DNA of 55,361 nucleotides. It comes from Candidatus Nanopelagicaceae bacterium. GTDB lineage: Archaea > Asgardarchaeota > Lokiarchaeia > Sigyniarchaeales > SOKP01. The notes under the pieces are model-generated. The model worked only from the letters and a program-made list of their open reading frames with translations. It searched no databases and had not been told where the DNA came from. The DNA is taken from the NCBI GenBank assembly GCA_035530895.1, contig DATKTW010000106.1, forward strand, positions 1-55,361. The letters are read 5' to 3'. The position numbers and the translations under genes are program-made. Positions 7,324-37,272 of this stretch are shown in pieces (positions within the stretch are counted from its first letter, which is position 1; every line of letters starts with the position of its first letter).

Positions 7324-8793
7324 TCAGCTTTTCTTGAATTCTTTGAATAAACTTCTCACTTTTAAGAAAGAATTGAGAACTGTTAAAAATCTTCTAGGGT
7401 TCAAAAGAAATAACAATCCTCGAGTTTTAATTAGACGATAACCTATATCTTTCAAATTATTAACATATTTTAATTCTCTAAAAGAGAAATATAAGAGATC
7501 ATATAATTGTTTTGGACTTAATTGATGAGTTCTAATAACCGGATAAAAAACTGTATATTTAGACCAATCTTTAGATATTACTAATCCTTGCTCATCCAGT
7601 TCTTTAAAAGTATCGCTTCCGGGAAAAGGAGTTAATAACACAAAACTCACTATATCTACATCCACAGTTTTCATAAATTGAATTTCTTTAATAACTTCTT
7701 CTTCTGTTTCTTTTAAATCAATCCCAATTATCAAATTCCCAATTACAATTATATTATTTTCATGTAAAATTTTAAGCCCTTCAATTACTTTTTTAAATTC
7801 AAATCCCTTTCTCACTTGTTTAAGAGATTCTTCATTTACACTTTCAATCCCTATAAAAACGACCCAAAATCCTGCTTTTCTCATCTTTTTTACCATTTGA
7901 GGTGCGTTTATGATAGAATCGACTCTTATCTGCGCAAAAAATTTAAAATCATTAATTTCTTTTTTTTGTTTACATTCAATTATTTTATCGCACAACTTTT
8001 CAATTCTTGTAGTACTCACAGTTAGATTATCATCTACAAAAAAAATATCTGTAATTTTTCTATTCTGTGAGATCATCTTTAATTCTTTTATTATTTTTTC
8101 AACAGAACGTGGTCTCCATAAATTTTTATTGAAAACATGAGTAGTACAAAATTTACATGTATAAGGACAACCTCTAGAGGTTTCCACCGTTTCTAATCTT
8201 ACTGTAAACATTTTATATTTATTATTTTTTGTGAGTTCTCTTGCGGGAAATCTAATGTTTTCAAAATCTTTTATTAATGGTCTATCAGGATTATGAATTA
8301 CTTTCCCATTAGATTTATACGAAATCCCCTTTACACTTTTAGGTGTACCCTTAATGATTAATTCTCTAAATGTTAACTCTCCTTCACCCCTTACTAGTAT
8401 ATCAACTTCATTAAGATTTATTGTTGAATCTGGTTCGAATGTAGGGTGTCTCCCACCAAATACTACAGTACAATTTGGATTAACTTCTTTTACAATTTTT
8501 GCAATATTATTTGAGTTCTTTAATGCGGCAGATACAAAAACTGAAATACCAACAATATCTGGATTAAATTTTTCAATTTTTTTCCTAATCTGACTAAATG
8601 TTAAGTTTTTCACTTTTGTATCAAGGATTTCTACATTTACATTTAAATCAGTTAAATAGCTAGCTATATAAGTCAGATTAATTGGAGGAAAATCCATATT
8701 ATAATAGTCCCAGCCAGTGGTTCTATAATTTGGTTTAATTAATAATACTTTTTTCCAAGTAAAATCATGATTTTTTGAAATTTGATAATCCAT
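7324..8793 (-). CDS. B12-binding-domain radical SAM protein
   Basis: N-terminal Rossmann-like B12-binding region (VGISV...VFGGRHPT). The radical SAM cluster motif is ETSRGCPYTCKFC (CxxxCxxC). Confidence 0.85.
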   Translation of the reverse strand: MDYQISKNHDFTWKKVLLIKPNYRTTGWDYYNMDFPPINLTYIASYLTDLNVNVEILDTKVKNLTFSQIRKKIEKFNPDIVGISVFVSAALKNSNNIAKIVKEVNPNCTVVFGGRHPTFEPDSTINLNEVDILVRGEGELTFRELIIKGTPKSVKGISYKSNGKVIHNPDRPLIKDFENIRFPARELTKNNKYKMFTVRLETVETSRGCPYTCKFCTTHVFNKNLWRPRSVEKIIKELKMISQNRKITDIFFVDDNLTVSTTRIEKLCDKIIECKQKKEINDFKFFAQIRVDSIINAPQMVKKMRKAGFWVVFIGIESVNEESLKQVRKGFEFKKVIEGLKILHENNIIVIGNLIIGIDLKETEEEVIKEIQFMKTVDVDIVSFVLLTPFPGSDTFKELDEQGLVISKDWSKYTVFYPVIRTHQLSPKQLYDLLYFSFRELKYVNNLKDIGYRLIKTRGLLFLLNPRRFLTVLNSFLKVRSLFKEFKKS

Positions 8794-8797
8794 TTCT

Positions 8798-10339
8798 TTA
8801 GATCCTATAGTTTTTTATAGCATTTTTTAGATCTTTCATATGGTTTAAATTTCCTGTTTTTATTTGTTTTACATCTTTCTTTTTTAATCCACCTAAATTA
8901 TGTATAACAATTTTTTTCCATTTAAAATATGAACTAAATGCTCGATAAAATCTAAAAGGATTGATAATATAGAAAATTCCTCTTGATCTAACAGTTCTAC
9001 GGCATAAATAATATTTATTTCTCGAATTTCCTCCATAATAGCCAATTGAATAAAAACCAAGAAACAGTAGTTTTTTAAGAATTTCTGGGCTAAGATTAGG
9101 GGTTTTTATCACGGGGTTAAGCCAATTAAATTTACTATATTCTTCTGTTAAAAGTAGACCTTTTTCTTTAATTTCATCGTAAAATTTAGTTGATGGGAAT
9201 GGAGTTAACAATGTAAAACTTGGTAAGTCTAAGCTTAACTCTCTTGTTTTATTAATTGTTATAAGAACATCATCTACAGAGTCGTTTAGGTTAGCTCCGA
9301 TAATAACATTTCCCATTACTATTATATCGTTTTCATGTAAAACCTTTATACCCTCTTTAATTTGATTTGTATTACACCCCTTAGCCACTGCTTTGAGTCC
9401 TTTGTCATCAGTTGCTTCGACGCCTACAAGAACAAGCCAAAAACCTGCTTCAGCCATTAACTTAACTACTTTAGGGTGTCTCGCCATCGAATCTAATCGT
9501 CCTTGAAAGAAAAAAAATAAATTTTTTCGTATTCTTCCCATTCTTTTGCCTTTTATAATTTCAAAGCATAATCTTCCAATACGTTTCATATTAACAAGAA
9601 AATTATCATCTACAACAAAAATATCACTAATTTTTTTATTTTTAGAAATTATTTCTAATTCATTTATAACATTTTCAACTGATCTAGATCTCCATGTTTG
9701 ATTATAGACCACATTAGTACTACAGAATTTGCATGCTTGTGGGCACCCACGAGAAGTCTCAATTGCGTCAATATTCATATTAAATATTTTGTATTTATAA
9801 TTTCCTACCAAATGGCGAGACGGAGGCCTTAACTCATCCAAGTTTTTTAAAAATGGTCTATCCGGATTATGTATTAATTTTCCATTCATTTTATAGGATA
9901 GACCACATATATTTAGTGGAGACCCCTTTTCAATTAATTCACGGAAAGTAAATTCACCCTCACCTCTAACCAAAATATCTATCCATGGAGAAGATAAAGT
10001 TTGCTCAATAGCTAATGTTGGATGCCACCCCCCAATAACAGTTGTTGAGCCATATAATTTAGCAATTTTTGCATGTTGTAAAACAGTATCAATGGCACTT
10101 GTAACTGGAACTGTTAATCCTACTAAATCAGGCTGATAATTTTCAATTTCCTTCTTAACTTGAGAAAAATTTAATTTAGCAGCTTTTGAATCTAATATTC
10201 TCACTTCTACCAGATCTTCTACATAAGCCGCAATATATTCAAAGGCTAGAGGCGGGAAGGCAGAATCATAAAAATCATAACCAGTTGTCTTGTAATTTGC
10301 AACTAATAATAAAATTTTCTTCCATTTCATAATTTTCAT
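8798..10339 (-). CDS. B12-binding-domain radical SAM protein (paralogue of 7324-8793)
   Basis: Same architecture, with cluster motif ETSRGCPQACKFC. It aligns with its neighbour along the whole length (LVRGEGEFTFRELIEKG / LVRGEGELTFRELIIKG). Confidence 0.85.
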   Translation of the reverse strand: MKIMKWKKILLLVANYKTTGYDFYDSAFPPLAFEYIAAYVEDLVEVRILDSKAAKLNFSQVKKEIENYQPDLVGLTVPVTSAIDTVLQHAKIAKLYGSTTVIGGWHPTLAIEQTLSSPWIDILVRGEGEFTFRELIEKGSPLNICGLSYKMNGKLIHNPDRPFLKNLDELRPPSRHLVGNYKYKIFNMNIDAIETSRGCPQACKFCSTNVVYNQTWRSRSVENVINELEIISKNKKISDIFVVDDNFLVNMKRIGRLCFEIIKGKRMGRIRKNLFFFFQGRLDSMARHPKVVKLMAEAGFWLVLVGVEATDDKGLKAVAKGCNTNQIKEGIKVLHENDIIVMGNVIIGANLNDSVDDVLITINKTRELSLDLPSFTLLTPFPSTKFYDEIKEKGLLLTEEYSKFNWLNPVIKTPNLSPEILKKLLFLGFYSIGYYGGNSRNKYYLCRRTVRSRGIFYIINPFRFYRAFSSYFKWKKIVIHNLGGLKKKDVKQIKTGNLNHMKDLKNAIKNYRI

Positions 10340-22301: not shown

Positions 22302-23120
22302 CTAACGCTTGTATTGCCAAAGATTTAAATCTTTTCTGATCTTCTTGCCAATCTCCATAGATTTTTTACCTAACATCTCTATTTCCTTTATAGATAAAGT
22401 AGCATATCCACTTTTTTGAATAGATGTTATTTTATCTTCGGTTACCGAAATTGAAATATTTCCATCGCATACTAATTCTTCTGGTAAACTCGGATCTAAG
22501 AAAATAATATCACCAATTTTTCCATATGTTAAAATTATAGGTAATTCGTTCACAAGTGTATCTCCGCTCAAATATTTACCCGTCCATGTAACTTCGTTGT
22601 TCTCCCATATTCCTTCAGGGATTTTGCTTGAAATTAACGTAGTTAAAGCGCTAATGCCACCAGCATCAATTAAATTCCCTGAATAATTAATAACATAAAT
22701 ATCCACGAATAGAATATAGACTGCTGCATTTTCCTTTATACACAACTTTTTCGTTTGAACACAGTCTGCATGGCGAATTCCCCTATCAACAACGCGTGCT
22801 AATTCTATAGATTGTTCGTCAGGAGGACCTCTTTCAAACAAAGGAGATGCTAAAGGTAATAGTTCAGCCATAAATGTACAAACTCCCTCGTTAGGAAGAT
22901 CTGGAAATGGTGCACCTACATCGTACTTCAATCCAGTGATCACCCGTGTTTTTCCTAAAGAAACTTCAGCAGATCCCTCCGCTGAAGCTATTACATTACT
23001 TTTAACACTCCAGTCTCTATGCTGCCAAAGATCTCTGCCATCTATTCTTTCTCCTTTTTTCAGATTTGAAAGAATATAATTCTTTTCTATAGTCGATATT
23101 ACTCGCTTTATATTCATCAT
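22302..23120 (-). CDS. rrp42: exosome complex component Rrp42
   Basis: RNase PH-like fold without the Rrp41-type phosphate site. RIDGRD motif. Overlaps rrp41 by 4 nt. Confidence 0.85.
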   Translation of the reverse strand: MMNIKRVISTIEKNYILSNLKKGERIDGRDLWQHRDWSVKSNVIASAEGSAEVSLGKTRVITGLKYDVGAPFPDLPNEGVCTFMAELLPLASPLFERGPPDEQSIELARVVDRGIRHADCVQTKKLCIKENAAVYILFVDIYVINYSGNLIDAGGISALTTLISSKIPEGIWENNEVTWTGKYLSGDTLVNELPIILTYGKIGDIIFLDPSLPEELVCDGNISISVTEDKITSIQKSGYATLSIKEIEMLGKKSMEIGKKIRKDLNLWQYKR

Positions 23121-23884
23121 TCTTTTTTCTCTCCTCCACTGTATTCTTCTTGAATTTCGATGTATTTCTTTTTCAACGCGTCCAGCTGAATTTCATAGAT
23201 TTTAGAGATTGCGTCTTTAGCAAGGCTTAAGTACTTGCTAAATTCATCTAAATCCATACTACCATCAAATTGAAGTAATGAGAGTTCTTCGTTAAACCAT
23301 GTCATTGCACAAGGTAAATCTGCTTCACCTGCTTTATCCTCTATCCCTGATAGATCAGTAATTAATTCTCCATCAATTTTTCCCACAGCAACGGCGGTTA
23401 CTAAACTTTTCATAGGAACACCTGCATCTGCAAGTGCTAATGCTGCAACCGTGGTACAAGCACATCGTGTTCCACCATCGGCATCCATAACGTTGATAAA
23501 AACCTCAAAAGCTGTTCCAGGATAAAGTTCTAAAAAGAGAACGGGTTCCAGGCAGTCAGTTATTACCATTGAAACTTCTTTTTCTCGGCGACCAGGAGCA
23601 GGGCGTTTTCTTTCAAACACCGAAAAAGTTGCCATCCGATAAAAAACGCGTAAAATTCCTCTGTCTGGTTTTGCTAAATGGTGAGGATGTACTTCTCTCG
23701 GTCCATAAACGGCAGCATATATTTTGTTGTTACCCCATTCGATGTAAGCTGAACCGTCAGCATTTTCTAAGACTCCTACTTCCATTTTAATAGGTCTCAG
23801 CTCGTATTTATCTCGGCCGTCTAACCTCTTACCGTCTTCACGAAATAACTTCTCCGGATACTCATCTTTAATAATTAACGGCAT
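23117..23884 (-). CDS. rrp41: exosome complex exonuclease Rrp41
   Basis: RNase PH domain with RLDGRDKYELRP, DADGGTRCA and GEADL motifs. Confidence 0.9.
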   Translation of the reverse strand: MPLIIKDEYPEKLFREDGKRLDGRDKYELRPIKMEVGVLENADGSAYIEWGNNKIYAAVYGPREVHPHHLAKPDRGILRVFYRMATFSVFERKRPAPGRREKEVSMVITDCLEPVLFLELYPGTAFEVFINVMDADGGTRCACTTVAALALADAGVPMKSLVTAVAVGKIDGELITDLSGIEDKAGEADLPCAMTWFNEELSLLQFDGSMDLDEFSKYLSLAKDAISKIYEIQLDALKKKYIEIQEEYSGGEKKE

Positions 23885-24694
23885 TTAATTCATACCTCTT
23901 ATCTTTTTTTCATTCTCAATATATTCAGACATTCGGTCTGTTAACCCAACAGTATGGGCTTCTTCTTCTATTTTTCGTATCGCATCTATTAATAATCTTT
24001 CATGAGCCAAATCTTCGCCTTTTAACCAAATACGACCATTTTGAGTCACAAATATATTACTTTTAGTCAGGTTTTTTAACATTTTAATCATCGAACCACT
24101 ACGCCCTATAACGCGGGGTATTTTTGGAGGGTCAATTGTGATTACTAATCCATCCCTTCTTTTACCTAAGTATTTACCCACGGTTGTTAATTCCGGTTTA
24201 TTTAACCTATCTGCCGAAAGTACTTTAACTATTAAAATGTCTCCGATTTCATACTTTTCCGTAGAATTATCCTGATCATCAGATGCTCCGCCTCTGTAAC
24301 CTCTCGGTTTTCCTCTTGTTACTGTGTTCTTAGGTTTTAAAACTCCGTTGTCTTTCGAGTTTATATCGCATATGTATTTAACGGGATTTTTATCAGTAAC
24401 TAACGCAATTATTTTGTCTCCTGGACGGGGTGTATAAAATCCTCTAAGGGGAATTACATTAATGTAATTTCTCTTAACTTGTTTTAATCCAATATTTAAG
24501 GAAATAATTTTAGATCTATCTTTATTAAATATCGTTCCACGTCCCGGTAGGAAATTTTTTGTATCCTCTGATAAAATTTCTCCAGGTACTACAAGATCGC
24601 GGGAAGTTTCCTCGTCATCAAACTCATCGATATCTACGTCCTCAGAAGTATCTACTGTAGGATCTTCAATAGGTTCATCTTTCTCGTGTTCCAT
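23885..24694 (-). CDS. rrp4: exosome RNA-binding subunit Rrp4 (S1 + KH)
   Basis: VVPGE N-terminal domain, an S1 region, and KH motif VIGRSGSMIKMLK. It has an acidic N-terminal extension and a Gly/Arg-rich insert (GKPRGYRGGASDD). Confidence 0.85.
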   Translation of the reverse strand: MEHEKDEPIEDPTVDTSEDVDIDEFDDEETSRDLVVPGEILSEDTKNFLPGRGTIFNKDRSKIISLNIGLKQVKRNYINVIPLRGFYTPRPGDKIIALVTDKNPVKYICDINSKDNGVLKPKNTVTRGKPRGYRGGASDDQDNSTEKYEIGDILIVKVLSADRLNKPELTTVGKYLGKRRDGLVITIDPPKIPRVIGRSGSMIKMLKNLTKSNIFVTQNGRIWLKGEDLAHERLLIDAIRKIEEEAHTVGLTDRMSEYIENEKKIRGMN

Positions 24695-24787
24695 TTCTTA
24701 AACTCACTTTTTCTTATTATTTATACTTTTACTTAACCAATGTCGTAAAAAAAAAATCTAAACAAAAATTAGTTAAAAATTATTCGG

Positions 24788-25579
24788 CTAAGATTTCATA
24801 ATTTTAGTTTGAACTCTTCCATGAGTAAGTTTATTTAACTTGTCTACTAATTCCATCTGCAAACCTGCTGGCAAACTAACAACTGATACCCAAGATCCAT
24901 CCGATTGCCACTCCTCGTTCTTAATTTGCGCTATTTGCGCTACTATATTATAACCTTTCGCTGTAAATGCAGAAGGTATCTTAAGCGCAAGTTCTACCTG
25001 TTCCATTCGAATAGGTATGATTGCCCGTATTTGTTTGATAACATCATCAACCTGTTCTTCTGCATTTCTCATTAAGTCAACTTTAACTTTAGCTTCTTCT
25101 ATAGCTTTCTCGATTCTCTGATAAGGATGTGGCTTCTTATTTTGAGGATTTATCGCATTTTTGGTAATTATTGTTATAATTTGTTTTAATTTCTTTTCCC
25201 TCTCTTCATCTCTTTGAGAGCGAGTCCATTGAATCTCCCCATCAAGTAAAATATAGCCCGCTATAATTCTCCCTTCTGTAGTGTTAAATACAGCCTCCAT
25301 ATCACCATCAGTAGCTTTTTTTCCTCGCCTTAAATCCTCAAATACAATGAAACTTTCGAAAATTAATTCAATTGCTATCTTAGGATTCTTTAGAAGTTCG
25401 TCCACAGAAACACGTGATTTATCCTTTCCATCTACAAAACGCTTCTTGATTTCGTCTCGAATCATTTTTTTCGCTTCCCAAGCCTGATCTGGGGCTATTA
25501 GCATTTCAAATGTTCGACCCTCTTTTTCAATGCGTCCGATTATAAAATCGCCTAAATCTATCCGCGCTCTTTCTATCAT
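24788..25579 (-). CDS. sdo1: SBDS/Sdo1 ribosome maturation protein
   Basis: 263 aa with an FYSH-domain-like N-terminus (RIEKEGRTFEMLIAPDQAW). Conserved position between psmA and rrp4. Confidence 0.85.
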   Translation of the reverse strand: MIERARIDLGDFIIGRIEKEGRTFEMLIAPDQAWEAKKMIRDEIKKRFVDGKDKSRVSVDELLKNPKIAIELIFESFIVFEDLRRGKKATDGDMEAVFNTTEGRIIAGYILLDGEIQWTRSQRDEEREKKLKQIITIITKNAINPQNKKPHPYQRIEKAIEEAKVKVDLMRNAEEQVDDVIKQIRAIIPIRMEQVELALKIPSAFTAKGYNIVAQIAQIKNEEWQSDGSWVSVVSLPAGLQMELVDKLNKLTHGRVQTKIMKS

Positions 25580-25696
25580 TGAAACTTATCTCGATTTGCT
25601 TTATGGAAATATTTCGTTTCTGTATGTTTTTTGCCTTCTATTATTAGATAAACGTTAATTTGAGATAACCTTGAATTAGATATAATTGTAAGAAGA

Positions 25697-26413
25697 TTAT
25701 ATTTTAGCTAATAATTCATCTTTTTCTTGATCATTTAATAGTTTAAATTTTAAATCGTCTTTCATAATGAAAGCTACATCACAAGTATCCTTATTTAAAT
25801 TTTCACCCATTAATTCCTTCAAGGTCCTTAAAGGTAATAATTTTAGGTCCTCATCATTTATATCTTCTTTATAATTTTCTTCAAGGTAAGCTCTTGCTTC
25901 AGTCGCTCCTGACCCAATCGCAAAGGCTTTATAACCCCACATAGCTCCACTTGGATCAGTTAAGTACAAGGAAGCTTCTCCATTGGAATCAATTCCAGCT
26001 ATAAGAAAACTTACTCCAAAAGGTCTTACGCCCGCATTCTGAGTAAACAATTGGAGGTATTCGCAAATGTTTAAGGTGCTATCTTTTACAGAAATTTTTT
26101 CATCATAATTTAAAATATTAACCTGTGCTTGGACGCGAGCTTTATCAACTAAAACTCTTGCGTCAGCTGTTAAACCGGCAATGGCTACTCCAATATGGTC
26201 GTCAACTTTAAAAATTTTCTCAGAGCCAATAATCTCTTGAAGCTCGGAACTCTTTTTCTCAACGGTAAATACAACAGAATTATTATTTCTACATACAATA
26301 GCCGTTGTTCCTCTTCTCACAGCTTCTATGGCGTACTCAACTTGAAAAAGACGACCCTCAGGGGAAAACTGAGTTATAGCCATATCATAGCCCCTTCCTG
26401 CTTGCTGAAACAT
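25697..26413 (-). CDS. psmA: proteasome alpha subunit
   Basis: YDMAITQFSPEGRLFQVEYA N-terminal signature. Confidence 0.9.
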   Translation of the reverse strand: MFQQAGRGYDMAITQFSPEGRLFQVEYAIEAVRRGTTAIVCRNNNSVVFTVEKKSSELQEIIGSEKIFKVDDHIGVAIAGLTADARVLVDKARVQAQVNILNYDEKISVKDSTLNICEYLQLFTQNAGVRPFGVSFLIAGIDSNGEASLYLTDPSGAMWGYKAFAIGSGATEARAYLEENYKEDINDEDLKLLPLRTLKELMGENLNKDTCDVAFIMKDDLKFKLLNDQEKDELLAKI

Positions 26414-29792: not shown

Positions 29793-29894
29793 CGCAATCG
29801 GAGGGATTCGAACCCTCGAGTCCATTGGACACCGGATTAGCAATCCGGCGCTTTTGACACGCTTAAGCGTTCTACCAAGCTAAGCGACGATTGC
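29793..29894 (-). tRNA. tRNA-Ser (GCU) with short D-loop intron
   Basis: - Acceptor GCAATCG/CGATTGC.
- Anticodon arm CCGGA-TTGCTAA-TCCGG.
- Long variable arm.
- T arm GAGGG-TTCGAAT-CCCTC.
- An 18-nt insert (29854-29871) with the ACGC-TTAA-GCGT hairpin interrupts the D loop. Confidence 0.8.
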
Positions 29895-30078: not shown

Positions 30079-30561
30079 TTATTCTTGGATGATCTCAAAA
30101 ACCATTTTCTCGATCATAGGTTTTTTTGTATACCGCTTATCGTAATACCAACCCACCATATGCCCCTCTAACTCCTTTTCTGGCATATGAGGAATTATAA
30201 TAATCATAACCCCGTTTGAAAGATATTTAAGTATCCTCTTATCAATTTGGTGCAGTTTATCGTTTCCAGATGGATGTGTGTGTGCCTGCCAGACTATATC
30301 TACGTTAAGTTCCTGTTTAAACTTACGCATGTTATAAATTTTTGACTTTTTATACCTCATCCAACTTCTTGGTTTTACGTGGGTTTTTGATTTTCTTAAA
30401 TCTGGATTAATGATAAATTTCTTAACAATTCCAAAGTTTTCTTTACGATCAGCAAAAATCCAATAGTGTTCGATATTTGGATAAACCTCTGCGGCTTTCT
30501 GGGTAATTTCTTTAAATAATCGATCTGGTATCAAATACCTAAAATTTTTTGCAGCACTCAT
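30079..30561 (-). CDS. JAB1/MPN/JAMM-like metalloprotease (variant motif)
   Basis: 160 aa. HTHPSGNDKLHQID fits HxHx7(S)xxD, but with His in the Ser position. An upstream Glu is present (NIEHYW). Confidence 0.5.
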   Translation of the reverse strand: MSAAKNFRYLIPDRLFKEITQKAAEVYPNIEHYWIFADRKENFGIVKKFIINPDLRKSKTHVKPRSWMRYKKSKIYNMRKFKQELNVDIVWQAHTHPSGNDKLHQIDKRILKYLSNGVMIIIIPHMPEKELEGHMVGWYYDKRYTKKPMIEKMVFEIIQE

Positions 30562-30808: not shown

Positions 30809-30909
30809 GCACCTGTAGCCTAGTGGTAAGACGCTGGCCTTGAGTAGATAATACGATCAAGTAAGCCAGTGCGCGTAAGCGCTCGGGGGTTCAAATCCCT
30901 CCAGGTGCG
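30809..30909 (+). tRNA. tRNA-Ser (UGA) with canonical 37/38 intron
   Basis: - Acceptor GCACCTG/CAGGTGC.
- Anticodon stem CTGGC/GCCAG.
- Loop CTTGAG|intron|A.
- The 19-nt intron (30845-30863) forms a textbook BHB: CTTG pairs CAAG, with bulges AGT and TAA.
- Long variable arm GCGC-GTAA-GCGC. Confidence 0.85.
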
Positions 30910-30934: not shown

Positions 30935-31038
30935 GGGCTATTAGCGCAGTCAGGTAGCGCATCCGGCTCTTAACCGGCAGGTCGGGGGTTCGATACCTCC
31001 ATTCAGAAAGCATGGAGGCGAAATTCCCTCATAGCCCG
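30935..31038 (+). tRNA. tRNA-Lys (CUU) with T-loop intron at 59/60
   Basis: - Acceptor GGGCTAT/ATAGCCC.
- D arm GCGC-AGTCAGGTA-GCGC.
- Anticodon loop CTCTTAA.
- The T arm GGGGG...CCCTC is interrupted by a 30-nt insert (30995-31024) with a perfect BHB: TTCG pairs CGAA, bulges ATA and ATT, inner hairpin CCTCCAT/ATGGAGG.
- The spliced T loop is TTCGATT. Confidence 0.85.
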
Positions 31039-31070: not shown

Positions 31071-32024
31071 TTATAAATATTGGAATATTACTTCAAAATC
31101 AGAGAAATCAAAAGGTTTTAAAATGTAACCATCAGCATTACTTTCTTCGAGATGCTTTTCTACTTCTGAACCTGGTATAGCAGTTAACAAATAAACCGAA
31201 ATGTTTTGATGCTCTTTACTTGATTTAATCTGTTTGCAGATATCATAACCACTATAATCAGGTAAAATAATATCAAGCAATACCAACTTAGGTGGGTTAT
31301 TTGCTAGCTCTTCCAATCCTTTTGTTCCACTTACTACCCCCTTACAGGAAAAACCTTTGCTTTCAAAATAGCTTGTTAATAAACGAATAGTAGCTAAATC
31401 ATCTTCAATTAATAATATATCGTATTGAAGAGTTTCTGTTTTTATATTGTCCAGAATGTTGATAATTTTCTTCTCTAAAAGTAGAGATTGATTAAATATA
31501 TTTTGAATGGTATTAAAAACACTTTCGTCCATTTCATCACGATAATTTTCAATCAATAGCTGAGAAAATCCTTTGATTGACGTTAACGGTTCCTTTAGAG
31601 CATGCGATATGTTTGTGAGAGTTTGATTGTTTATTTTATGCAAATCTTCATTGATTAGAGTGGATTCTTGCTTAATAAAATAGTTAACACTCTCCCGTAT
31701 AAGTTTGGAAATGGTGTTATATTTATTTTTATGAGTTTTTATAAACTTGCTCCACTCTTCTTTGGTTTTGTCAGTTACATACAAGGAAATGCGCTCCTTT
31801 TCTCTGTCGTATATTTTTTCTCCTTTAAGCCATTTCATAAAACCTTCTGTTATGTTTCCACGCCATTTAGCATACTTATCCGTTGTGTCCTCATACTCCC
31901 TCATTAGTTTTTTCGCTTGTTCGCTATTCAAATCCAGATTATTTATTTCTTCGTCAGTCATATTTGGACTTGTGTGATTTTCCTTACCATTAGAATTACT
32001 ATCGTTCTTTTTTTCGTTAGGCAT
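31071..32024 (-). CDS. RHH-like domain + HisKA (H-box) + receiver domain protein, no HATPase domain
   Basis: - H-box ISHALKEPLTSIKGFSQLL.
- Complete REC domain (LIEDD, VLLDIILPD, LLTA, ILKPF) directly after the dimerisation helices.
- N-terminal ERISLYVTDKTKEEWSKFI...ISKLIRESVNYFI looks like a ribbon-helix-helix. Confidence 0.7.
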   Translation of the reverse strand: MPNEKKNDSNSNGKENHTSPNMTDEEINNLDLNSEQAKKLMREYEDTTDKYAKWRGNITEGFMKWLKGEKIYDREKERISLYVTDKTKEEWSKFIKTHKNKYNTISKLIRESVNYFIKQESTLINEDLHKINNQTLTNISHALKEPLTSIKGFSQLLIENYRDEMDESVFNTIQNIFNQSLLLEKKIINILDNIKTETLQYDILLIEDDLATIRLLTSYFESKGFSCKGVVSGTKGLEELANNPPKLVLLDIILPDYSGYDICKQIKSSKEHQNISVYLLTAIPGSEVEKHLEESNADGYILKPFDFSDFEVIFQYL

Positions 32025-32275
32025 TTTTTACACCAAATACATTTTCATTTGATTTATATCTGAGTAATATTACGCTTAAAAATCTAATTTTATTATATTG
32101 TTTATTATAAAAAATTTTATTTTTGGTAAACTAATCTTTTACTTAATAGTAATTATTCACAAAAAATAAATTTAATCTAATTAAGTTTTATCATATTTCT
32201 TTAAAAGTTAACAAATCCAAAGAAAAATCATCATTCTTCTCTTGATGGGGATAATTTATTTAATTATTACTCAGA

Positions 32276-33184
32276 TTATTTCACTTTTCCATTTAAAATT
32301 TCAAAAATAACTCCAAAATCAGAAAAATTAAATGGTTTAAGAATGTATCCATCAGCGAGTGTCGCATTTAAACGTTTTTTTATTTCTGATGCGGATATCG
32401 CTGTTAAAAAGTAAACTGGTATCTTTTTGTAAGTATTATCAGTTTTTATAGTCTGACATATATCATACCCACTTAAATCAGGTAAAATTATGTCTAGCAA
32501 TATAACTTTTGGGACCATCCTTCTTAATTCCTCTAAACCCTTTGTCCCACTTACAACTCCCTTACAGATGTAATGTTTACTTTCAAAATAGCTTGTTATT
32601 AACCGGATTGTTGCCAAATCATCTTCAATTAATAAAATGTCGTAGGGAGTACCTTCAGGTTGAATATTGTCTAAGAAATTTTTTATAATGTTTTCTAGCA
32701 GATTACTCTGATCGAAAATATTTTTTATTGTTTCCTCAACATGCTCACTTAAGTTAGCTTTATATTCATCGCTTTCAAGAAGTAATTGGGAATAACCTTT
32801 AATAGATGTAAGGGGTTCTTTTAAGGCGTGAGAGATGTTGGATATGGTACTCGGGTTCAATTTAGACAGTTCATTTGAAACTCTACTCGAATCTTCTATA
32901 AATGACTTAACACTTTGTCTTATTAACTCTGAAAAACTAGGAAAGGACTCTTTGTTTTTATTTATAAATTTTTGCCATTCTCCTTTAATCTTATCGTCAA
33001 CATATAAAGATATTCTTTCCTTGTCTCGCGTATAAATTTTTTCGCCTTTTAACCATTTTTTAAAACCTTCAGTTATCGCTCCTCTCCAAACTGCGTACTT
33101 ATCGTTCTCTTCTTTGTATTTTTTCATGTATTGCTTTATTTTTTCGTCGTTAAGATTAATATTTTCTATTTCTTTTTCGCTCAT
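32276..33184 (-). CDS. RHH-like domain + HisKA (H-box) + receiver domain protein (paralogue of 31071-32024)
   Basis: Same architecture: ERISLYVDDKIKGEWQKFI...FSELIRQSVKSFI, ISHALKEPLTSIKGYSQLL, and REC with LIEDD / ILLDIILPD / ILKPF. Confidence 0.7.
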   Translation of the reverse strand: MSEKEIENINLNDEKIKQYMKKYKEENDKYAVWRGAITEGFKKWLKGEKIYTRDKERISLYVDDKIKGEWQKFINKNKESFPSFSELIRQSVKSFIEDSSRVSNELSKLNPSTISNISHALKEPLTSIKGYSQLLLESDEYKANLSEHVEETIKNIFDQSNLLENIIKNFLDNIQPEGTPYDILLIEDDLATIRLITSYFESKHYICKGVVSGTKGLEELRRMVPKVILLDIILPDLSGYDICQTIKTDNTYKKIPVYFLTAISASEIKKRLNATLADGYILKPFNFSDFGVIFEILNGKVK

Positions 33185-33812
33185 ACTTAGTTTATCTTCT
33201 GATTCATCCTTACTCGAACTCTTTTCATTCTTAGTGGATGGAATTTCTTTCTTATTTGATTTTTCCGGTTCTTGCGATATCTGTATTTCACCTTAAAAGA
33301 AAATTTTTCTTTGAAAAAGACGATAATAAATCCAAAAAATTAGTGGTAAAAGTTTTATTTAAGATTATGTAAAAAGATAGCACGATAACTAATTACTAAT
33401 TTTAACGCGATTAAGAAAACAGTCGCAATTTTCAAGAAGCAAAATCAAGGAAATTATTTCACCCAAGGTTCTAAAGGTGTCATATTTTTATTCAAATATA
33501 TATCCTAATCATACATCTATTATTAATTCAAAAAAAAATAGTTATATTCAAATTCCTTTTATTCATAGGAAATTAGGTAAAAAAAAAAAAAGTTACTACT
33601 AAAAGTAATTTTTGTTTAAAAAAACATAATATTTAAATACAAAATTATCATTGTTTGTTATAACAATATGTGTGTTCAAAAACTGGTTCAAATATATATT
33701 GTGTGTGAAAAGAAAAAAAAGTTGTCCTATTATTCCCTTGAAAAACGAGAATAGTAAAAAAATAGGAACGACAAAAAAAATTTTAAAACTGTAAGCAAAG
33801 TGGTATTTTATT

Positions 33813-34706
33813 ATGATTGTTGAATTAGATGTATCATCAAGTTTGTGCCCCGAATGCCGTGGGAATACTGTTATTATACAGGAAAGAGGAGAAACTGTCT
33901 GTCAACAATGTGGACTAGTTGTTGGAGAGAGAGGATTGGATATTACCCATAGTGGGATAAGGGCTTATTCGAAACACGAAAAAGATAGAAAGGAGCGGAC
34001 AGGGTCTCCTATGTCTATCTTGATGCCAGATATAGGTCTGAGTACTGTTATCGATAGAACCAAAATCAAAAATCCTGATTTACGAAGAGCTGCTAAATGG
34101 AATACACATCTGTCTTGGGAAAAGAGAAACATGTTAATGGCCATTACCGAACTGAAAAGAATAGGCGGTAATCTAAATTTTCCCGAAAGAGTGAAAAAAT
34201 CTGCTGTTAGATTATATAAAGAAGTTTTTAAAAGACAACTTTTGCGAGGAAGATCGATAAACGGGATGGTTGCAGCATGCGCGTACTACGCGTGCAAAGA
34301 CGAAAAAGTGCCTATAACGCTTCAAGAAATACTAGAAGAAGCTTCTATTAACGACAATATCGTAAAGAAGTGCTATAAGATTTTAGTTCGGGAGTTAAAT
34401 TTAAAAATATCACATATTGATCCCGTAACTCTTATCCCGCGTTACTGTGCTGATCTAAATTTAGGAATTGAAGTGGAAAAAGAAGCAATGAAAGTGCTTC
34501 ACAACTTTATAGTAAGAACCTCTATTTCTGGAAAAGATCCTAAAGGATTATGTGCTGGTGCGATATATCTTGTAGCGAAGTTGAGGAATGTAAAAGTGTC
34601 TCAAAAAGACATATCTCGTGTTATTTCAGTCACTGAAGTAACTTTACGTTCAAGATATAAAGAACTTCTAAGGAATGTTAGTATTAATTTTAATTCATTG
34701 AATTAA
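33813..34706 (+). CDS. tfb: transcription initiation factor TFB (TFIIB homologue)
   Basis: N-terminal zinc ribbon CPEC...CQQCG, then a B-reader/linker and two cyclin-like repeats (RGRSINGMVAACAYYACK; KGLCAGAIYLVAK). Confidence 0.9.
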   Translation: MIVELDVSSSLCPECRGNTVIIQERGETVCQQCGLVVGERGLDITHSGIRAYSKHEKDRKERTGSPMSILMPDIGLSTVIDRTKIKNPDLRRAAKWNTHLSWEKRNMLMAITELKRIGGNLNFPERVKKSAVRLYKEVFKRQLLRGRSINGMVAACAYYACKDEKVPITLQEILEEASINDNIVKKCYKILVRELNLKISHIDPVTLIPRYCADLNLGIEVEKEAMKVLHNFIVRTSISGKDPKGLCAGAIYLVAKLRNVKVSQKDISRVISVTEVTLRSRYKELLRNVSINFNSLN

Positions 34707-34810: not shown

Positions 34811-35494
34811 CTAAAGCACACTGGAACTTGTAAGAAGAACTATTATATAGTCGGCAACGCCTTCAATAGAATCGGATATTGCTTCCAAAATGTCGAATAT
34901 ATTGCCAACAGTGAAAATTGTAAAGAAATTAACATTATATTCTGTTTTCTGAAGACTTTCTCTTAGTTTAATATTTAAAAGGTCTACTTCGTGTTCAAGT
35001 TGATTTATCTTTTTAGCATACTCTACCACACTTTTCCTTTCGCCCACTAAATCAATAACAAGCTTATCTAAATTGTTTACCGCTTCTACGGTTGTTTCAC
35101 TTATTTTTAATATTAGTTTTATAGTTTCTTCACTACTTTGCTCCCAAAATCTTATAGGTACGGTAGTAATTCTACGAGCAACGCCCGTACTACAATTTGC
35201 TACATCATCTAATCTTTTTATAAGATGTGATAAATTTTCTCTAATGCTTGGATTTAATTCTCCTTTTGAAACATCTTTTGATATTTCTCTTCTTAACTTG
35301 TCTGCTTCGTCCTCTAAAAAATCAACTTTGTCAAAGTTTTCGCGAGATTGTTCAAGATTCTTTTCCTCTAGCAATACTTTTAGCCCAACTTCTAATTCTC
35401 TTACACATTGTTGAACGACCTCAGCATGTTTAATCGTTTTTTCTAAAACATTCAATGCCGTTTTTCTTTTCAAATATTCTATTAATGAACCCAT
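34811..35494 (-). CDS. DUF47/PhoU-like phosphate-transport accessory protein
   Basis: Helical protein with FLEDEADKLRREI and LIKRLDDVANC motifs, as in DUF47 (PhoU-related). Adjacent to PiT. The ATG at 35494 is preferred. Confidence 0.6.
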   Translation of the reverse strand: MGSLIEYLKRKTALNVLEKTIKHAEVVQQCVRELEVGLKVLLEEKNLEQSRENFDKVDFLEDEADKLRREISKDVSKGELNPSIRENLSHLIKRLDDVANCSTGVARRITTVPIRFWEQSSEETIKLILKISETTVEAVNNLDKLVIDLVGERKSVVEYAKKINQLEHEVDLLNIKLRESLQKTEYNVNFFTIFTVGNIFDILEAISDSIEGVADYIIVLLTSSSVL

Positions 35495-35563
35495 TTTTAT
35501 CACACATTTTCTTTTCTTTATTAGTGCTATATATTACAATTACTCAGTATTTTTTATAGTTTA

Positions 35564-36595
35564 TTAGACTAATCCAAATAAATTAAATCCAAAATAAATC
35601 AACCCTGCGAGAATCGCAGCAACTGGAAAAGTAAGAATCCAGTATATAGCCATTTTTCCTAAGCCTTTGTAGTCAACTTCCTTTTTTTGAGCCACACTCA
35701 TTCCAATTATGCAAAATACTATTACATGACTATGGGAAATAGGTAAGCTTAATAAGGTAGCAATCATAAGAATCAAGGCTGAACTTATTTGAGTAATGAG
35801 ACTTTCGCTAGGTCGAGAATCTATCATCTGAGATGCTAGATTTCTAACAACATACCGTGCTGCAATATAAATCCCAAGACAAGAGAAAACACCACAAAGA
35901 AATGCAAAGAATAAATATTGCTCCAAGTTCAACGTACCTCCATCCAATAATCCATAAAGTATACCTACCGCCTCACCAGAATTTGCCCCCACCCATATCT
36001 CAGCAAAAATTACTGCAATTAACAATAACCATTTGAAAAATTTCTCAGATTTCTCGATTTGATTTAGACCTTTTAATTTGGATAGATAAGTTTTTGCAAG
36101 TAATTTAAAAAGCACATATGTTATGATCAATCCGAACGCTGGAGAAAAGAACCAACCCAGAATTACATTATTTAATTTTACCCAATTAAATACTGTTTCA
36201 GGATTAACTGTTTCATGTGTTATTGAGTATACAAATACTACTCCGAATATACTTCCTACTAATGAATGAGTGCTACTTAAGGGAATTCCTGCGAAACTAC
36301 CAATTACTAACCACAAGATACTACTTATTAATACAGTTAACAACATAAATTCTGTATAAGTTATTGCCTCACCTAATAAATCAGCACCAACGGTTTTTGC
36401 TACAAACGCAAAGCTAAAGGAGAACATCCCTACTCCAACTGCTAAACCACCAATTAGTAAGGCTACTTTGAATTTAATAACTCCAGCTCCAACTAAAGTG
36501 GATAGAGTTTCATCATTTGCACCTATAGAAAATGCAAGGGCGATTGCCAAGGCAATTAAAACTACTACTACCATTGAAATAATGTCAACTGCCAT
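35564..36595 (-). CDS. pit: inorganic phosphate transporter, PiT family
   Basis: Polytopic. GANDETLSTLVG near the N-terminus and a second PHO4-type repeat near the C-terminus. Confidence 0.85.
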   Translation of the reverse strand: MAVDIISMVVVVLIALAIALAFSIGANDETLSTLVGAGVIKFKVALLIGGLAVGVGMFSFSFAFVAKTVGADLLGEAITYTEFMLLTVLISSILWLVIGSFAGIPLSSTHSLVGSIFGVVFVYSITHETVNPETVFNWVKLNNVILGWFFSPAFGLIITYVLFKLLAKTYLSKLKGLNQIEKSEKFFKWLLLIAVIFAEIWVGANSGEAVGILYGLLDGGTLNLEQYLFFAFLCGVFSCLGIYIAARYVVRNLASQMIDSRPSESLITQISSALILMIATLLSLPISHSHVIVFCIIGMSVAQKKEVDYKGLGKMAIYWILTFPVAAILAGLIYFGFNLFGLV

Positions 36596-36609
36596 GGTTA
36601 ATCAATTTT

Positions 36610-37272
36610 TTACTCAAAGATTAAATATTTAGTCGCTAAAAATTGAATATACTCAGAAAAGCTCTTAATGTGGTCAGCCAACATCATAATATTTTCTATT
36701 AATTCTTTCAAGTATAGGAAAGTTTTTGATAAGTAATCCATATCATAATTATATAATTGATTAAGTAATTTCCATTCCGCTTCTCTCATTTTTCGTCTTT
36801 CATCTTTTACTTCTTCACATATATCATGAGCTTTACTCAAATCTGATCCAATTGTTTTTACTGCTTCTGCTAAGTCATTAGAAATTGTTTTTAATGATTT
36901 TAGAATACTTAAGATTTGGAGTTTAAACTCTTTGTCAGGAAATATAACTTGATAGAGAAGCATTTTATGGGCGAAAAATTCTCCTATATTTTTGATATCA
37001 TTAATTTTATTGAATAATTTTAATCTGTCTGCTTTTGAAAACATTAATTTAGATTTAAATATTTTAAATTCAAAAGCTTTCTTGATTCGAACTTCAGTAT
37101 TTGTTTCAATGACAATATTTAGATTTTGATTGAATTTTTCAAATTCTTCGTCAACAAGAAATTCAATGCCTTCAATTAATTTCAAATTTTGTTCATTTAT
37201 ATTTTCTACAAATAAGTGCGTTAATTCGTTAATATTCATCTTTTTTAACTCGTCATCACTTATTTCTCTCAC
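36610..37272 (-). CDS. helical protein, possibly a second DUF47/PhoU-like accessory protein
   Basis: 220 aa, all-helical by composition. It sits immediately upstream of PiT in the same orientation. The motif match is weak. Confidence 0.4.
   Translation of the reverse strand: MREISDDELKKMNINELTHLFVENINEQNLKLIEGIEFLVDEEFEKFNQNLNIVIETNTEVRIKKAFEFKIFKSKLMFSKADRLKLFNKINDIKNIGEFFAHKMLLYQVIFPDKEFKLQILSILKSLKTISNDLAEAVKTIGSDLSKAHDICEEVKDERRKMREAEWKLLNQLYNYDMDYLSKTFLYLKELIENIMMLADHIKSFSEYIQFLATKYLIFE

Follow-up and report, generated by a model that had tools for sequence, protein, structure and literature searches.

Bacteroides hybrid two-component systems, built as sensor–HisKA–HATPase–REC–AraC helix-turn-helix (HTH), place a phospho-acceptor histidine, a phospho-acceptor aspartate and a DNA-binding domain on one polypeptide. 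DNA-binding response regulators are, to our knowledge, scarce in archaea, and we know of none with a ribbon-helix-helix (RHH) output that has been studied. The closest described class is that of the 'RibbonHH-HisKA-REC' proteins of Lokiarchaeum GC14_75 listed in Table S3 of Galperin et al. 2018 (J Bacteriol 200:e00681-17), which include Lokiarch_05110/KKK46010 and Lokiarch_07240/KKK45742. Here we analyzed a tandem pair of genes, A and B, in a 55,361-nucleotide (nt) contig of a Lokiarchaeia genome (DATKTW010000106.1, assembly GCA_035530895.1; the whole contig is referred to as the window). Both proteins are members of this class, matching it in lineage, domain order and size (~300 amino acids, aa), with no difference in architecture. 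A preliminary description of the window did not recognize the combination as a described family; the architecture is in fact already catalogued and not new, and the finding as first stated is no discovery. The census gives the class one sentence and table entries, with no functional study or experiments, and no experiment on it is reported in the literature searched. Nor does the census mention the conserved N-terminal module (N-module), the tandem pair, its linkage to the gene for the initiation factor TFB, the HxLKE variant of the H-box, or the neighborhoods of methyl-accepting chemotaxis proteins (MCPs) and PAS kinases. These features, including the antiquity of the TFB-linked pair and its associated palindromes, appear to be unreported. 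On balance, A and B are best read as orphan DNA-binding two-component response regulators of this Asgard-specific class.

Several other systems share parts with the pair. The Bacteroides hybrids combine His site, Asp site and DNA-binding domain as here, but they are bacterial membrane proteins with a working ATPase domain, a periplasmic sensor and a C-terminal AraC HTH. Archaeal HisKA proteins without HATPase, such as the REC-(PAS/GAF)n-HisKA regulator AF_1472 of A. fulgidus, likewise join two-component modules to a dimerization and histidine-phosphotransfer (DHp) domain that has a conserved His and no ATPase; Galperin et al. 2018 suggested a phospho-acceptor or phosphatase role for such proteins. 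Their receiver is N-terminal and their HisKA C-terminal, with PAS/GAF domains and no DNA-binding domain, whereas the window pair runs RHH-HisKA-REC. Spo0B of Bacillus and ChpT of Caulobacter, which move phosphoryl groups between receivers, also form dimers of a DHp-like hairpin whose His can be phosphorylated, and lack ATP-dependent autokinase activity. They are stand-alone proteins that keep a C-terminal pseudo-ATPase domain and have neither receiver nor DNA-binding domain; in the window proteins a receiver, not a pseudo-ATPase, follows the DHp, and the His is dispensable in some paralogues. NikR, CopG, Arc and MetJ share the N-terminal RHH and a dimer held and regulated by a C-terminal domain, but that domain, where there is one, binds a metal or small molecule, and none of them carries DHp plus receiver phospho-signaling. 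In OmpR/PhoB-type regulators, receiver phosphorylation controls a DNA-binding domain through a Thr/Tyr switch, and the receivers of A and B are 30–35% similar to those of RpaA, MtrA and PhoB. Their domain order is the opposite, with the receiver N-terminal, a winged-helix output and no DHp, and complete archaeal genomes lack the class (Galperin et al. 2018).

Domain organization of A and B

Gene A (positions 32276–33184, minus strand; 302 aa) is the first of the tandem pair and gene B (31071–32024, minus strand; 317 aa) the second. Open reading frame (ORF) calls confirm both as real genes, Pfam matches cover both, and positional orthology further identifies B. The two proteins are 62% identical over 298 aa (E = 2e-129) and consist of the same four parts: N-module, predicted RHH, DHp (HisKA) and receiver. 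The order proposed in the preliminary description, RHH followed by a HisKA H-box and a complete receiver with no kinase ATPase domain, is upheld, and its suggestion that the proteins must be charged by something else appears sound, with phosphorylation probably supplied in trans. Gene A is transcribed, as metatranscriptome contigs cover 32349–32646 and 33043–33286, and TFB transcripts are also present; the RNA runs are sparse and insufficient for mapping transcription starts. Many A orthologues begin 16 codons farther upstream (318 aa, MNDKSSSKD...), a region corresponding to 33185–33232 in the window. There AAG replaces the upstream ATG, so that the start of A is the internal Met, as in several other lineages (301–302 aa).

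The receiver spans residues 181–297 of A (32294–32644, minus strand; phospho-acceptor Asp231, codon 32492–32494) and residues 201–314 of B (31083–31424, minus strand; Asp251, codon 31272–31274). Pfam Response_reg (PF00072) matches both well above its cutoff of 30.2 bits (A, 68.0 bits, E = 1e-18; B, 66.9 bits, E = 2.2e-18), and the domain of A is modeled by AlphaFold2 (AF2) with a predicted local distance difference test (pLDDT) score of 84–93. The acidic pair (D188/D189 in A numbering), the phospho-Asp (D231), T261 and K283 are all present, in agreement with the first description, together with the switch Tyr280. Across 145 syntenic orthologues the sole change at D188/D189, D231, T261 and K283 is one D189N. 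Conservation reaches farther: all 27 divergent representatives (below ~50% identity) retain the phospho-Asp and 26 of them the Lys, and among 85 metagenomic paralogues the Asp is found in 83 and the Lys in 81. Searching the PDB with phmmer returned RpaA, MtrA, PleD and CheY-like chains as receiver matches. The domain has LTA at β4 and Tyr280 at β5 and lacks the FATGUY motif, the mark of pure shuttle receivers (PMC9981736). As judged from these residues, it is a complete receiver of response-regulator type.

The DHp/HisKA hairpin precedes it at residues 105–175 of A (32660–32872, minus strand; H-box His119, codon 32828–32830) and 127–195 of B (31440–31646, minus strand; His141, codon 31602–31604). 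Pfam HisKA (PF00512, gathering cutoff 26.9) scores 46.3 bits in A (E = 4.3e-12) and 32.8 bits in B (E = 7.4e-8), and phmmer aligns residues 106–178 of A with the DHp of HK853 (PDB chain 4jas_A). The H-box string ISHALKEPLTSIKG occurs in both proteins (A, residues 117–130; B, residues 139–152), as first noticed. HATPase_c gives no Pfam match in A or B even at E ≤ 1. The AF2 secondary structure leaves ~10 residues between the end of DHp helix 2 (~172) and receiver strand 1 (183), and hence no room for a ~150-aa ATPase domain, cryptic or otherwise. A and B are thus not sensor histidine kinases.

Putative DNA binding is assigned to residues 53–100 of A (32885–33028, minus strand), which comprise the strand ERISLYV, a helix at 64–76 and a helix from 84; the corresponding segment of B, residues 74–122 (31659–31805, minus strand), is placed by alignment to A and by the evidence for the family. 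Pfam RHH_1 aligns over its full profile length to residues 57–97 of A, with a score of 13.6 bits (E = 0.067) that lies under the 20.5-bit gathering cutoff. Family-wide, a full-length RHH_1 match is obtained in 17 of 35 diverse members (best E = 3.9e-5; E = 0.0013 in representative P0130). A profile built from 26 divergent N-termini and compared with the PDB gave 13 matches, five of which, including the top three, are RHH proteins aligned in one register: ORF56 (2k9i, E = 0.059), 56B (2kel), NikR (2bj1), ArtA (3gxq) and a CopG/Arc/MetJ antidote (5ceg). The AF2 model of A residues 1–112 (pLDDT 93) displays an extended segment, the 64–76 helix and a long helix from 84, in accord with the strand ISLYV and following helices read from the sequence at the outset. 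Among Foldseek matches of low root-mean-square deviation the best is the RHH of PrpA, at a level that is not significant. Conserved β-strand residues K/R-x-R-I-S-L-Y fit a DNA-reading ribbon. With the RHH_1 profile matched at the level of the family, residues ~56–100 are predicted to form a CopG/Arc-type RHH.

The preliminary RHH assignment is supported; it did not, however, split off the first ~50 residues, which form a separate conserved module. This N-module covers residues 1–52 of A (33029–33184, minus strand; AF2 pLDDT >90) and is modeled as helix, β-hairpin and helix around the core ...DKYAxWRGxITEGFKKWLKGEKIY, with ETGKxAIWxGxITxxFKKWxKGEKIY as another form of the core. In B it aligns to residues 22–73 (31806–31961, minus strand), after a 21-aa low-complexity extension. 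No Pfam or NCBIfam model describes it, and when the first 112 residues of A (module plus RHH) were compared exhaustively with 1.84 billion representatives by HMMER, only 83 clusters were recovered. The module recurs in other fusions, namely Arf-GTPase–module–receiver (P0167), Ras–module (P0186), module–Ras (P0170) and module–leucine-rich repeats (LRRs; L002, 4985–6139). It is a mobile, Asgard-specific unit distinct from the RHH.

Synteny and putative promoter DNA of the pair

More than 1500 homologues of the regulator family were found, and those with a named source all come from metagenome-assembled genomes (MAGs) of Lokiarchaeota/Promethearchaeota. Scanning one genome per GTDB species yielded 95 coding stretches, of which 80, corresponding to 76 loci, were kept. 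All 80 lie in MAGs labeled Asgard or unclassified 'uncultured archaeon'; the named genomes are mostly Promethearchaeota, and a few are labeled Hermod-, Odin-, Hod- or Thorarchaeota. The family is confined to Asgard archaea. Two copies stand in tandem on one strand at 67 of the 76 species-level loci. In 1762 of 2211 genome pairs orthology follows position, first copy with first and second with second; the contrary pattern occurs in 7. The surrounding block is conserved as well, running from a divergent TFB gene (74/85 loci) through A and B to a gene for a 160-aa protein (67/85) and DUF2110 (50/85). In the window, TFB (TFIIB) lies at 33813–34706 on the plus strand, divergent from A, and is identified by Pfam TFIIB and Zn_Ribbon_TF and by NCBIfam PRK00423; it is a possible regulatory target. 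A and B arose by an ancient tandem duplication and have stayed next to TFB across Lokiarchaeia.

The spacer between TFB and A is long (445–737 nt in 52/60 loci). A simple repeat search of the AT-rich spacers returned only weak, uninterpretable repeats, and phylogenetic footprinting was used instead. It revealed a TATA-like element, ATTTAAATA, at 33631–33639 (plus strand), which lies 111–173 nt from the TFB start codon in 60/60 loci. An A-rich, BRE-like (TFB recognition element-like) AAAAC on its far side, resembling the arrangement at the A and B promoters, suggests that this putative promoter points at TFB. At 33655–33666 a perfect 12-bp palindrome, TTGTTATAACAA, with no other exact copy in the window, covers the predicted TFB transcription start as a candidate operator. 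Palindromes resembling TGTTATAACA flank the TATA-like element, one on the TFB side and, in many genomes, a second just past the other side. At ≤1 mismatch, TGTTATAACA occurs in 36/60 TFB–A spacers, as compared with 7.5 (maximum 14) in shuffles; at ≤2 mismatches and fixed offsets, palindromes were found at the two positions in 33/60 and 24/60 loci versus 3/60 in a control window. On the minus strand, a second TATA-like element within a conserved block, CTTAAATAAAAC at 33352–33363, is the probable promoter of gene A with a ~170-nt leader; the RNA contig reaching 33286 extends at least ~100 nt 5′ of the A ATG. A BRE/TATA-like block at 32148–32177 (minus strand), 5′ of gene B and conserved in an alignment of 67 A–B spacers, suggests that B has its own promoter, and at two loci (L031 and L033) the same palindrome is found at the B promoter. 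Rfam gave no match in the spacers. A sigma-70 promoter/terminator scan, irrelevant for an archaeon, showed no enrichment.

Proposed signaling and alternative readings

We propose that the DHp hairpin would serve as a constitutive dimer spine, in a homodimer or an A/B heterodimer; an RHH needs a dimer because its DNA-reading β-ribbon is built from two chains. Histidine kinases encoded elsewhere would phosphorylate the receiver, at Asp231 in A and at Asp251 in B. Phosphorylation may then shift receiver–DHp packing through the Thr/Tyr switch, and the altered packing could change RHH geometry or oligomerization and with it operator binding. The H-box His, which lacks both the acidic H+1 that aids kinase activity and the H+4 Thr/Asn that aids phosphatase activity, would not itself be a catalytic centre. 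Most likely it is an internal phospho-acceptor/donor that trades phosphoryl groups with the receiver tethered to it (His↔Asp) and so provides a buffer or a second point of entry. The TGTTATAACA-like palindromes around the TFB-side promoter-like element and the pair's own promoters are the probable DNA targets.

Candidate kinases are at hand in the neighborhoods of paralogues elsewhere, for which 79 metagenome loci were inspected. A multi-PAS HisKA-HATPase kinase lies within two genes of the paralogue in 24 of 99 cases, and 17 of these 24 are convergent and immediately downstream. In Lokiarchaeum, the nine-PAS kinase KKK46009 comes right after KKK46010 (HisKA; REC) in the list of a 2023 survey; their consecutive accession numbers suggest that the two are adjacent genes. 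Table S3 of Galperin et al. 2018 counts 65 kinases versus 27 regulators in Lokiarchaeum GC14_75, so that orphan kinases are plentiful.

Several observations weigh against this scheme. The full-length AF2 monomer is of low confidence in the RHH and DHp regions, and receiver packing is unreadable from the model. Neither the conserved block nor the set of the ten largest ORFs in the 55-kb window includes a kinase. The pair sits in a housekeeping neighborhood (exosome, proteasome, uL2, GatDE), so that its place beside TFB may reflect plain synteny. The palindromes, for their part, could be sites of another factor. Neither A–B spacers in general nor the regions upstream of paralogues are enriched in them, which leaves a family-wide operator unsupported. 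Finally, the strict conservation of the His in orthologues could mark a primary, rather than secondary, site of phospho-entry.

This last point leads to the foremost alternative, to which we give a modest chance. Here the pair would be a fused phosphorelay terminus in which the DHp His is the obligatory entry point, phosphorylated in trans by the receiver of a hybrid kinase or by a shuttle receiver, as in Spo0B/ChpT, and passes the phosphoryl group to the receiver on its own chain, which switches the RHH; one chain would thus hold the output as well as steps 3 and 4 of a His-Asp-His-Asp relay. The H-box His is retained in 145/145 syntenic orthologues, and the preliminary H-box call does not dissolve into a generic coiled coil. 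It is kept despite the absent ATPase domain and the loss of the acid that follows it: in HisKA domains, kinase but not phosphatase activity depends on the H+1 acid, and phosphatase but not kinase activity on the H+4 Thr/Asn (Willett & Kirby 2012), and both are missing in the window proteins, whose H-box reads H-A-L-K-E (an HxLKE variant). H+1 is Ala in A and B and Ala or Thr in 142/145 orthologues, with Asp in 3. A receiver tethered ~10 residues from the DHp, best NCBIfam receiver matches that include those of the hybrid kinases HrmK, ArcB and BarA, and the existence of hybrid kinases in Lokiarchaeota (Galperin et al. 2018, Table S3) all speak for such a relay. Against it, the His is replaced (by F, V, L, Y, R, E, K or N) in 10 of 25 full-architecture divergent representatives and in 9 of the 85 metagenomic paralogues (kept in 76; H+1 in the 85 is usually Asp/Glu), whereas loss of the receiver Asp or Lys is rare. 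The kinases that flank paralogues are ordinary PAS-HisKA-HATPase proteins that do not look hybrid, and the receiver-docking pseudo-ATPase domain of Spo0B/ChpT is absent. The phosphorelay node envisaged in the preliminary description is accordingly weakened in its obligatory form, since distant paralogues drop the His yet almost never the receiver Asp/Lys.

A second possibility, which we regard as unlikely, is that the RHH-like segment and the N-module mediate protein–protein contacts and do not bind DNA, for example as an adaptor coupling MCP-type receptors or small GTPases to kinases. It draws on the company that the module keeps with Arf/Ras GTPases, LRR repeats and a bare receiver, on the sub-threshold RHH scores of the window proteins, and on genomic context. 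Of the 75 family genes with an upstream neighbor, 25 have an MCP gene directly upstream on the same strand, encoding MCPsignal with dCache, 4HB or HAMP domains (Pfam), and the cassette kinase< MCP> regulator> <kinase recurs. MCP–regulator gaps are ~300–780 nt, and family genes do not stand out by the length of the gap upstream of them; the association is one of neighborhood, not of tight operon coupling. Paralogue loci that show the MCP and kinase neighborhoods include L089, L092, L095, L097, L104, L127, L129, L132, L151 and L156. The adaptor is countered by the full-length RHH_1 matches across the family, by PDB profile matches to DNA-binding RHH proteins in one register, by the ribbon-like β-strand and by the operator-like palindromes that adjoin the genes.

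Still more doubtful is a role as a phosphatase or phosphate sink, in which a kinase-less DHp phosphatase directed at its own or other receivers, or a receiver draining kinases, would tune other pathways with the RHH as a secondary feature. Galperin et al. 2018 raise the phosphatase possibility for archaeal HisKA proteins without HATPase, and the excess of kinases over regulators in Lokiarchaeum also speaks for this reading. The required H+4 Thr/Asn, however, is Glu in both window proteins and in 144/145 orthologues, followed by an H+5 Pro in all; it is again Glu in the metagenomic paralogues, and E, Q or D in nearly all paralogues, with Asn once among the 27 representatives. The phosphatase-type transcription factor offered as an option in the preliminary description is disfavored by this residue. 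In addition, the RHH and N-module are conserved to the same degree as the receiver. Decayed remnants of hybrid histidine kinases that lost the ATPase domain and have no current function, a notion suggested by a DHp–receiver order like that of a hybrid kinase from which the ATPase domain has been deleted, are in effect ruled out by conservation: active-site residues hardly vary among the 145 orthologues (53–74% overall identity), homologues are numerous, both paralogues are retained in 67 lineages, and transcripts are detected.

Returning to the response-regulator reading, a pair that belongs to the Lokiarchaeial core, is duplicated and is very strongly conserved probably transmits a regulatory signal of central importance. 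The proteins would represent a compact new two-component wiring if phosphoryl groups pass between the His and the Asp of a single chain. Control of the adjacent TFB gene by the pair would link environmental sensing directly to basal transcription; and if A/B bind the TFB-promoter palindromes, the amount of a general initiation factor would be set directly by a two-component signal, in the archaea most closely related to eukaryotes. The MCP links and an N-module common to Arf/Ras-like GTPases and LRR proteins offer a handle on how Asgard signaling networks are connected. A bolder composite may be drawn, in which A and B form an obligate heterodimeric, self-contained His-Asp switch that binds the TFB-promoter palindromes, while the wider family provides a CheA-independent MCP output via the N-module and shares this adaptor with small GTPases; taken jointly, these statements are unlikely to hold.

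Other genes in the window

The gene for the 160-aa protein (30079–30561, minus strand) lies 3′ of the pair, with opposite-strand tRNA genes between it and B. Invariant in its product are E41 and the string H94-x-H96-x7-H104-x2-D107, in which a His takes the position of the JAMM Ser; Pfam, NCBIfam and a PDB profile search gave no match. Of the neighbors first named for the pair, the tRNA genes are borne out by Rfam, while the 'JAMM-like' label could not be verified and rests only on the HxHx7Hx2D string. Rfam places three tRNA genes, at 30809–30909 (plus strand), 30940–31002 (plus strand) and 29801–29868 (minus strand); ARAGORN returned zero tRNAs in the window and was set aside given these three. 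The first spans 101 nt and is thus probably intron-bearing, and the other two are partial model matches.

The outer left flank of the conserved block carries either PiT/PhoU_div (~20 loci, the window included) or GatD/GatE-like/uL2 (~40 loci). In the window, PhoU_div (DUF47), a PiT (PHO4) phosphate transporter and a second DUF47-like gene occupy 34811–37272 (minus strand), just past TFB. A Pho-like role through these neighbors was considered and dropped, as the adjacency holds in only ~20/85 loci. Farther away, a segment of the exosome superoperon at 22302–26413 (minus strand) encodes an Rrp42/Rrp41-like RNase PH pair, an Rrp4-like protein, SBDS and proteasome alpha. Two tandem B12-binding radical SAM genes (489 and 513 aa) lie at 7324–10339 (minus strand), and the G+C content of the window is ~31%.

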